Shown here: in pieces, positions 56,227 to 58,461 of the stretch
How positions within the stretch are numbered: position 1 is the first letter of the stretch
Layout: each line of letters opens with the position of its first letter
Source of the DNA: Octopus vulgaris
Lineage: Eukaryota
Assembly: GCA_951406725.2 (NCBI GenBank)
Contig: OX597815.1
Span: forward strand, 66,898,001-66,962,000
Length of the DNA stretch: 64,000 nt
Direction of reading: 5' to 3'
Notes under the pieces: model-generated
The model's database searches: none
What the model was told of the DNA's origin: nothing
The model's input: the letters and a program-made list of their open reading frames with translations, nothing else
Translations under genes and position numbers: made by a program

Positions 56227-57111
56227 GTAAGATTTTTTCTTTACAACTGAATAGTTTTTTTTTTATGGACTTTTTAGTTGTAATCAGTATCTGACTGACT
56301 ACAAATACTGCATTATCAGTGTAAGAAATTATTGGAGGAGCTTGGTCTCTACCTTTGCTTTATAATTTCTATAAAGATATGTAGTCAAGTTTGTAGTCTA
56401 AATAGTGTATGTATATAGTTAGATGTTATATATTTAGCTGTATATATATTCTCCCCTTAATTGTCGTTTTTCAGATGCTGGTAGTAAGTTTCCCTGTCCT
56501 TTTTTTAATTTTTTGAGATTGTGTAGGTTGTTGATTATATGTACTTAGTTACAGAGCTGTAATATTTTAATAGGGAAAAATTTGTATACTTTGCTATTTT
56601 CTAAATTAAGAACCTTTTTAGATATTGAATTGTTAATCTTGTTTGTATATTGCCATGTATTTGTATTGTAAATGTTCTGCTGATGTAATTTTGTAATTTC
56701 AATTTTGATTGTATAAAAATTATAAGGCTCTTGAGTTGTATTTTTTTTCATTTGTTTCAAGTTAGTCCTTTCTTCCTGTTTTCTTAGCTTATTGGAATGA
56801 TATATAGAAAATGTTTTTAAATGAAATAGCTTGTTAAATACTGTAAATATATTTATATCTTATTGTTTATAAATGTTAAATTGCTAATTTATTAGTTATG
56901 AAGAATAATAATGTTGATCGAATTTTAAAGGTTGGGCTTGTATTTTTAAAAAAAACCCACCTTATTATAATGTTTGTATTTTGAATATTTAACTTTTTTG
57001 TATGCACTTTGATATTTTTATCTTAATTTAAATTGGTTTTTAATATTTTTTGCATGATAAGTTTCACTTGTTGCTTCATTATGTGTCTTTCTGATTGGGA
57101 CGGGTGTGTAG

Positions 57112-57250
57112 GGCTGGAGATTGTCCCCAATGGGATTATGCTACCTGAGGACCGACAGGGGCGCAGCACGGGGGAGGCCTATGTACAGTATGCATCACCA
57201 GAAATAGCCAAAAAAGCATTGGATAAACACATGGCAAGACTGGGGCACAG
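57112..57250 (+). CDS. HNRNPH1: hnRNP F/H coding exon 4 (139 nt), qRRM2
   Basis: [36 protein letters not shown]-rich acceptor, GTGGGA donor. Confidence 0.95.
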
Positions 57251-58461
57251 GTGGGAGGACGGATGGGCCTGTTGGGGCTTATCTATTGTTGGTTTGTGTG
57301 CTGAGTTTGAATGACTGGATTAATTTTTTTAATTTTTAATAATTTATATTGGGATAAATTTGCACACTCGAAAAATGCTTTTTTTTAAAAAAAAATATTC
57401 TTTCATGTAAAATTTTCTTAGAATAAATTATTCTTTTCTATCGCAAAGTAAAATCTGGTTGGCTTAACATTGTGCCTCTCTTATAATTAATTCTATGAAA
57501 AGCATTTTTCTGTGTTTTGATTTTGTTTTTTTTTCTTTCTATAAAGTTCTGTAATTGTTTTTGTATAATCATCATTGTAGATTAAATTTTAAATAAATTA
57601 TACTGGAGTTAAGAAGGGTTGTTTTAAGATTAAAAAAAAAAAAATTGTAATTTTATATGTAAAAGCTCATTCAGCCTATATTTAGTGAGTGGCCTGGATC
57701 CATTCTTTAGTTATTTTTGCCCAAGGTTAAGATAGGCTTTTTTGAAAAATTCACTTAATGGGCAATTTGAATTGGATAAAATTCATCTAGACTAGTATAC
57801 TTTCTGTTAGCTAAATTTATGGCCTGTTTGAGTATTAGTGAATACTGGCAATTTTCTAATGGATATATTTAATACATACATGAAATCTTTATAAAGTGAA
57901 ACTTGAGACTGGTTCCTCCTTAGCTTGCAGGAGTATTTCTGAATTTGTATTTTTCGGTAACAGATTTCAAATTATAGTTTGTCATTTGTGCATGTATTTT
58001 CGTTTGAAACTAGATATTCTTTATATGGGTTTTTGATTTGATCAAGCTTGAAGGTAGTATTATTTGGTTGGTGGGGATCTGTGGATGTTATTCCTCAAGT
58101 AATGTAACTTGGGTAAAGAAGGAAGACAAAAAAATAATTCTGAATGTTATGAATTCTCAAGCTTGATCATTCAAATGTCCCTAGTGTTAAGGGTTTTGGC
58201 TGAATGAGCTACTTAGTATTACAGTAGCAACATAACCTGGCTAAATCTAGTGACTAGTGTGTAGATGATGTGTGAATGGGTTTTTTCAGTTTTCTTTATT
58301 TTTTCCCCCCTTTATTTAATACACAGGATACTGAAATGTAAATAACTTGTGATGTATTATCTTTGACGTAAATTTCAGTATCCTGTGTATAAATGGGGAT
58401 GTATTCTTTTCATGTTTTTAAGCATTGTGCCAGTGTTAATATTGTTCTTCTCTTATTTTAG

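Follow-up and report, generated by a model that had tools for sequence, protein, structure and literature searches.

A G-run-flanked, frame-shifting exon in an Octopus hnRNP F/H gene, a probable counterpart of the HNRNPH1 essential exon

Known splicing switches in hnRNP F/H genes

The essential exon of HNRNPH1 (exon 4 or 5, depending on the numbering) is mutated in mantle cell lymphoma and is a target of antisense oligonucleotides. Alternative splicing coupled to nonsense-mediated decay (AS-NMD) has been published for hnRNP F/H genes of mammals, for fly glorund and for worm hrpf-1. In mouse neurons, RT–PCR of Hnrnph1 yields a 314-bp product that includes the exon and a 175-bp product that lacks it, a difference of 139 nt; skipping brings in a stop codon and NMD, HNRNPH2 promotes skipping (cross-regulation) and knockdown raises inclusion, and the flanking introns are detained introns (PMC12637667). 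Mutation of the poly-G runs around human HNRNPH1 exon 4 increases inclusion (10.1101/686956). Cycloheximide stabilises the skipped form, and in human cells RNA G-quadruplexes (rG4s) shape how cooperatively HNRNPH acts (PMC13001508). A silencing code that combines an exonic UAGG with GGGG at the donor is found in HNRPH1 exon 5 and HNRPH3 exon 3, for both of which skipping was demonstrated; the latter is a paralogous, frame-shifting exon that is skipped in human and mouse tissues. hnRNP H raised the inclusion of three other UAGG and GGGG exons, antagonising silencing (PMC1079783).

Two protostome genes of the family show related events. The frameshifted glorund isoform CG6946-RC is stabilised by upf1 knockdown in the fly, although the part of the source that was available neither names the affected exon nor draws a link to the human exon (PMC2689934). 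Skipping of hrpf-1 exon 5 in Caenorhabditis elegans creates a premature stop, with NMD shown in smg-1 mutants; this skipping is developmental and sym-2-dependent, with loss of sym-2 shifting hrpf-1 towards the skipped form (PMC2265522). That form retains two RRMs, so the exon is likely to be a different one from the 139-nt exon considered here. Our search of the open-access literature found no paper that states a cross-phylum homology of the essential exon together with its G-runs. By term search, the main text of a study listing 25 bilaterian-conserved segments has no hnRNP entry (PMC10735318), and a relevant passage was absent from the accessible text of PMC3556307, PMC12155273, 10.64898/2026.09.05.749416, PMC4617972 and PMC12324280.

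A frame-shifting exon in the Octopus gene

The window, which here means the whole 64,000-nucleotide stretch of Octopus vulgaris DNA that was analysed, contains a gene of the hnRNP F/H family, the nine mapped coding exons of which join into an open frame of 463 codons (Table 1). Its nearest named protein, P0003 of Octopus bimaculoides (annotated as hnRNP H3), is 100% identical across the 139-nt exon and matches qRRM1-2 of PDB hnRNP H (E 3e-71), and in the trees the gene falls among named mollusc F/H proteins and separately from a GRSF1-like paralogue (L062). The 3′ end of P0003 corresponds to read-through of the donor at 59471, which indicates alternative 3′ ends (window 59471-60812); exon 9 is followed by a donor, and a candidate last exon begins at 60783. 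An ending of the NYTAF type, common in other molluscs, was not found in 59600-64000. Upstream, a probable non-coding first exon ends at 52567 (donor GTAAGT at 52568; acceptor near 53965). Exon-like frames with EF-hand-like text on the minus strand at 61700-62250 point to a tail-to-tail neighbour, which may be MICU1-like.

Table 1. Positions in the window of the host gene, the frame-shifting exon, its splice signals and the stops that mis-splicing exposes
Feature	Positions	Strand	Details
hnRNP F/H-family gene	54023..59670	+	nine coding exons mapped; final exon of long form not found
Coding exons 1-3	54023-54128, 55056-55211, 56083-56226	+	
Coding exons 4-6	57112-57250, 58462-58667, 58761-58993	+	
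Coding exons 7-9	59084-59216, 59295-59471, 59575-59670	+	
Frame-shifting exon, core of qRRM2	57112..57250	+	139 nt; borders AG/GG and CAG/GTGGGA
G-rich acceptor	57092..57111	+	two GGG runs, 57097-99 and 57102-04
Donor GTGGGA	57251..57256	+	G-run at +3 to +5, inside the stretch read by U1
Four G-tracts across donor	57242..57277	+	quadruplex-like pattern; loops 7, 9, 6
Premature TAG on exon skipping	58533..58535	+	159-residue product; 132 nt upstream of next junction
TGA on downstream-intron retention	57312..57314	+	
TGA on upstream-intron retention	56292..56294	+	

The Octopus feature is real with respect to its borders, the frameshift, the premature stop and the presence of its G-runs across phyla. 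G-runs lie within the exon (57111-13, 57132-34, 57158-61, 57170-74 and 57242-45) and in the intron downstream (57253-55, 57265-67 and 57274-77), and every coordinate and loop length given in the original prediction was confirmed on the sequence. The prediction also described a G-rich acceptor with no pyrimidine tract next to the AG. The acceptor is indeed G-rich, with a pyrimidine share of 0.35 from −20 to −4, the lowest of the eight coding acceptors (0.59-0.94 in the other seven), but a T-rich stretch at about 57083-57096, upstream of the acceptor G-runs, means that the tract lies further from the AG and is not missing. The CTGAT at 57091-57095 might, at a guess, resemble a branch point. G makes up 0.42 of the first 40 bases of the downstream intron and 0.13 further in, and when 56227-57600 was simulated 2000 times under a first-order Markov model, 8 of the simulations produced the four-tract pattern. 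The pattern occurs three times on the plus strand of the window; the other two occurrences are at 26342-26363 and at 59609-59647, the latter within the Gly-Met repeats of exon 9. The GTGGG word is not confined to the 139-nt exon, as the exon-5 donor (58668) reads GTGGGT. The 93-nt intron that follows it (58668-58760) would, if retained, lead to a stop at 58700-58702. The GTGGGT word seems not to be conserved, candidate exon-5 donors in other loci being mostly GTA.

If the exon is skipped, the frame runs into a TAG that precedes the next junction by 132 nt, further upstream than the >50-55 nt used to recognise premature stops. Four junctions were expected beyond this TAG, and the long gene model has four, whereas the isoform that matches P0003 has three; the stop predicted at 57314 for a retained downstream intron is the TGA in Table 1. 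The skipped mRNA would thus be an NMD substrate in molluscs on the assumption that EJC-type NMD (EJC, exon junction complex) operates there. An SR-type poison exon was considered and rejected; inclusion keeps the frame, and it is skipping rather than inclusion that brings the stop.

The vertebrate locus L005, which groups with a named fish protein in the trees, links this exon to the mammalian one: its exon peptide equals residues 128-172 of PDB hnRNP H 6dhs_A, and it has the same length and borders. The Octopus exon shares with the HNRNPH1 essential exon the place in qRRM2, the 139 nt and borders of L005, a GTGGG donor, an acceptor G-run, GGG glycine codons and a skipping-induced stop in the next exon. 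It differs in having GTGGGA rather than GTGGGG at the donor, two acceptor G-runs, no exonic UAGG and, across the donor, four tracts in a pattern that is absent from L005, and its regulation is putative. The predicted correspondence to the mammalian exon in length and peptide region therefore holds, as judged from L005, 6dhs_A and the 314-bp and 175-bp mouse products. The UAGG and GGGG code unites L005 (H1-like) with L014, an H3-like locus with the same borders, and exonic TAGG is present in 8 of 22 representatives. The Octopus exon has no TAGG and a donor run of GGG rather than GGGG, and the code was rejected as an explanation for it.

Conservation of the exon and its G-runs across phyla

A metagenome scan returned 72 loci, of which 58 were examined: 42 are genomic, 7 are spliced mRNAs, 2 are truncated at the end of a contig, 1 is GRSF1-like and 6 are distant and lack an intron at this place. 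The 14 left out (L051, L053-L061, L065, L066, L068 and L072) are partial, at 38-46% identity. Together with the window, the genomic loci form 21 clusters at 90% exon identity, a threshold at which the paralogues L005 and L014 merge. AG and GT stand at the expected exon borders in 42 of 42 genomic loci, and exon length is 3n+1 in all 21 clusters (139 in 17; 136, 142 and 157 in the rest). As controls we used the donors of exons 2 and 3 and the neighbouring acceptors of the same loci. A GTGGG donor is present in 18 of 21 clusters versus 0 of 27 control donors, a set that does not contain the Octopus exon-5 donor (GTGGGT). Similarly, GGG occurs in the last 20 intron bases in 18/21 clusters versus 1/22 neighbouring acceptors, and at least two G-runs occur in the first 40 bases of the downstream intron in 15/21 versus 0/27; as the clusters share ancestry, Fisher P values for these comparisons overstate independence. 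The clusters span bivalves, insects, crustacean-like, chelicerate-like and vertebrate loci and two unplaced groups (A and B), as placed by tree and similarity, with taxon labels taken from the nearest named proteins. The acceptors of bivalve-like L001/L002/L004 and of group A L021/L032 are near-identical to that of Octopus. Conservation of the G-rich signals is consequently wider than had been claimed, and intronic G-runs in related molluscs, the absence of which had been named as counting against the prediction, are kept in 4/4 mollusc clusters (the window and three bivalve-like loci).

Protein records give a second view of the donor. In a first set, 27 of 28 open reading frames (ORFs) that leave the protein after the exon continue with W and a codon starting with G, which equals GTGGG. 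A second set of 105 comprised 4 spliced, 12 unresolved and 89 scorable ORFs by a pattern that wrongly scored P0055 as spliced; 78 of the 89 are consistent with GTGGG, 10 differ and 1 ends immediately, as expected of a canonical donor. The same borders mark where a dipteran read-through ORF similar to PDB 5uzm (AT27789p), presumably glorund, diverges from the protein, and it continues with R-W-V beyond the exon; in fly glorund the homologous exon measures 145 nt. The GRSF1-like paralogue, a single case, has GTAGGT at the equivalent donor. In three loci (L024:1077-1260, L049:374-560 and L063:3001-3200), the GTGGG donor and most downstream G-runs are lost and the 3n+1 exon is kept. Of the nine loci with exons 2-4, eight have an intron before the 139-nt exon that exceeds intron 2 in length, as is often so around regulated exons.

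The exon is also marked by its glycine codons. Across 29 sequences, GGG accounts for 97 of 124 glycine codons within the exon, compared with 9 of 62 in the conserved motifs that other exons encode. At the glycine pair in the GR.[ST]G motif, it is used in 45/50 cases in the 139-nt exon and in 4/38 in the paralogous motif of qRRM1. In the Octopus exon, each of the four internal glycine codons is GGG (5/5 with the junction codon), versus 3 of 89 elsewhere in the gene, where GGG is the rarest glycine codon. The seven mRNA loci show the same bias, with GGG at 28/37 glycine codons in the exon and 51/573 elsewhere. Because qRRMs recognise GGG (PMC13573673), the bias is most simply read as selection for the word that the protein itself binds. 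Separately, codons 38-41 and 45 (57225-57244) are held at A-rich or otherwise fixed synonymous choices across 25 sequences (AAA 20, CAC 21, AAG 19, GAA 21 and, for the last, CAC 25/25), perhaps as an enhancer; the Octopus exon departs from this stretch at codons 40-43, with amino-acid changes.

This departure, the missing UAGG and the three clusters that lost the GTGGG donor are the observations that would suit a constitutive exon in Octopus, with G-runs left as a relic or as a by-product of composition and protein constraint. We regard that as barely credible: protein constraint cannot hold synonymous and intronic positions, GGG is the rarest glycine codon elsewhere in the gene, and the G content of the intron is lower further from the donor. 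Neutral intronic and synonymous sites would decay over such divergence times.

The quadruplex implied by the original prediction appears to be lineage-limited. The four-tract pattern is present in 4/4 mollusc clusters and in 8/21 overall, and is absent in 13/21, including vertebrate H1-like L005. An rG4 over the donor that hides it from U1 would agree with the mollusc pattern and with the role of rG4s in HNRNPH cooperativity in human cells (PMC13001508), but the clusters without it, and the fact that most conserved G-runs are isolated GGG codons scattered across the exon, make it very unlikely that a quadruplex is the working element. The shared core is scattered G-runs instead. Conserved secondary structure was rejected as well: the stretch from the window scored z = +0.60, and 18 sequences gave 10 weak pairs, of which none was compensatory.

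With the preceding exon as query, 212 short proteins matched, of which 120 were listed and 119 parsed. Among these listed matches, 18 records are spliced at the junction of exons 2 and 3, and 5 of them continue in the shifted exon-5 frame expected from skipping, as do 0 of 101 unspliced records. The five are from Apis cerana (UniRef, P0215), a beetle-like source (P0226), crustacean-like sources (P0198 and P0200) and a Nephila pilipes gene model (P0303), taxa that rest on two source names and otherwise on similarity. The skip frame computed from crustacean-like L012 is matched at 8 of 9 residues by P0200 and at 7 of 9 by P0198, and P0215 matches that of L028 at 16 of 43. The unnamed records, with joined exons on contigs of 1.1-1.5 kb, probably derive from RNA. 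The 120 matches listed, out of 212, included no skip product from a mollusc, and of the 20 sequencing runs that contain the stretch none is recorded as RNA. In three models (P0051 from Biomphalaria, P0033 from Elysia and P0217 from a bee), upstream splicing is correct and the frame then runs on through the donor, a faint hint of retention.

These records bear on whether mollusc transcripts might mainly retain or detain the flanking introns and seldom skip the exon. The read-through models would fit, as would the lack of a mollusc record among the listed skip products, the stop that follows either retention in Octopus and the detained introns that flank the mammalian exon (PMC12637667). We nevertheless think it quite unlikely, considering that P0051, P0033 and P0217 are gene models or partial and that skipping is seen in arthropods and mammals; the two outputs may also coexist.

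A probable feedback circuit and its age

On balance, the Octopus exon is probably the counterpart of the HNRNPH1 essential exon, and is likely to act as a negative-feedback switch through binding of the gene's own protein to the G-runs. As hnRNP F/H protein rises, its qRRMs would cover the donor G-run in competition with U1, cover the acceptor G-runs that replace the pyrimidine tract in competition with U2AF, and occupy the exonic GGG codons as well. The exon would then be skipped, or its introns held, and degradation of the frameshifted message would lower the protein level. Binding, the sign of regulation and NMD in Octopus are proposed by analogy with mammals; a search of the open-access literature found no test of binding or feedback in any invertebrate.

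The motif does not in itself settle the sign of regulation, because hnRNP H raised the inclusion of three other exons and sym-2 loss favours hrpf-1 skipping. The G-runs could accordingly be enhancers or sites for other factors, through which hnRNP F/H, or ESRP/hnRNP A1-like proteins, would support or tune inclusion, giving positive or cross-regulation. Such a role would be in keeping with the antagonism of silencing by hnRNP H at exons with donor GGGG (PMC1079783) and with the way in which loss of sym-2 mimics the skipping state of the worm gene (PMC2265522). It is nonetheless unlikely, given that the mammalian counterpart is skipped more with H2 and less on knockdown (PMC12637667), that mutating its G-runs raises inclusion (10.1101/686956) and that the conserved runs sit within the donor and acceptor, not solely downstream.

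The original prediction held that the same circuit exists in Octopus and dates to the bilaterian ancestor. Exon homology, conservation of the G-signals and the arthropod skip records favour this reading, with the Octopus circuit itself put forward by analogy. We infer that the last common ancestor of protostomes and vertebrates already had the circuit, and the alignments suggest that the self-limiting switch known from mammals is likely to date to early animals.

An origin of the self-sensor exon, donor word and GGG codons before bilaterians is a tentative proposal to which we would give somewhat less than even weight. Its basis is group B (L033, L037-L044), perhaps cnidarian, in which the loci have a 139-nt exon, a GTGGG donor and 4/4 GGG codons. 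In the larger tree, group B falls outside every named bilaterian clade. A quick maximum-likelihood tree (careful search unfinished) puts it beside group A and molluscs, and in the FastTree result it sits at the F/H base, in an open fork, placements that are both provisional; two Atlas searches with groups A and B returned generic hnRNP F/H clusters only. In group B, tblastn pieces (L039:145-1429 and L033:314-1036) cross the exon 2-3 junction and break about a dozen codons earlier, and the intron position appears to differ from that of other loci. If the pre-bilaterian reading were true, few animal feedback circuits built on the splicing of a single exon would be as old, and RNA binding would have kept protein codons fixed.

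The Octopus exon would be a further case of a known, mammalian-type switch, and its interest lies in its age. Regulated splicing events and their cis-elements can seldom be traced between vertebrates and protostomes; here the donor word, acceptor G-runs and GGG codons are kept. The alignment flags the positions most likely to be important (donor +3 to +5, acceptor about −15 to −5, and glycine codons 7, 16, 20 and 44) and argues against a quadruplex as the core. Flies, bees and molluscs are possible test systems for the switch, with the natural losses in L024, L049 and L063 as contrasts.
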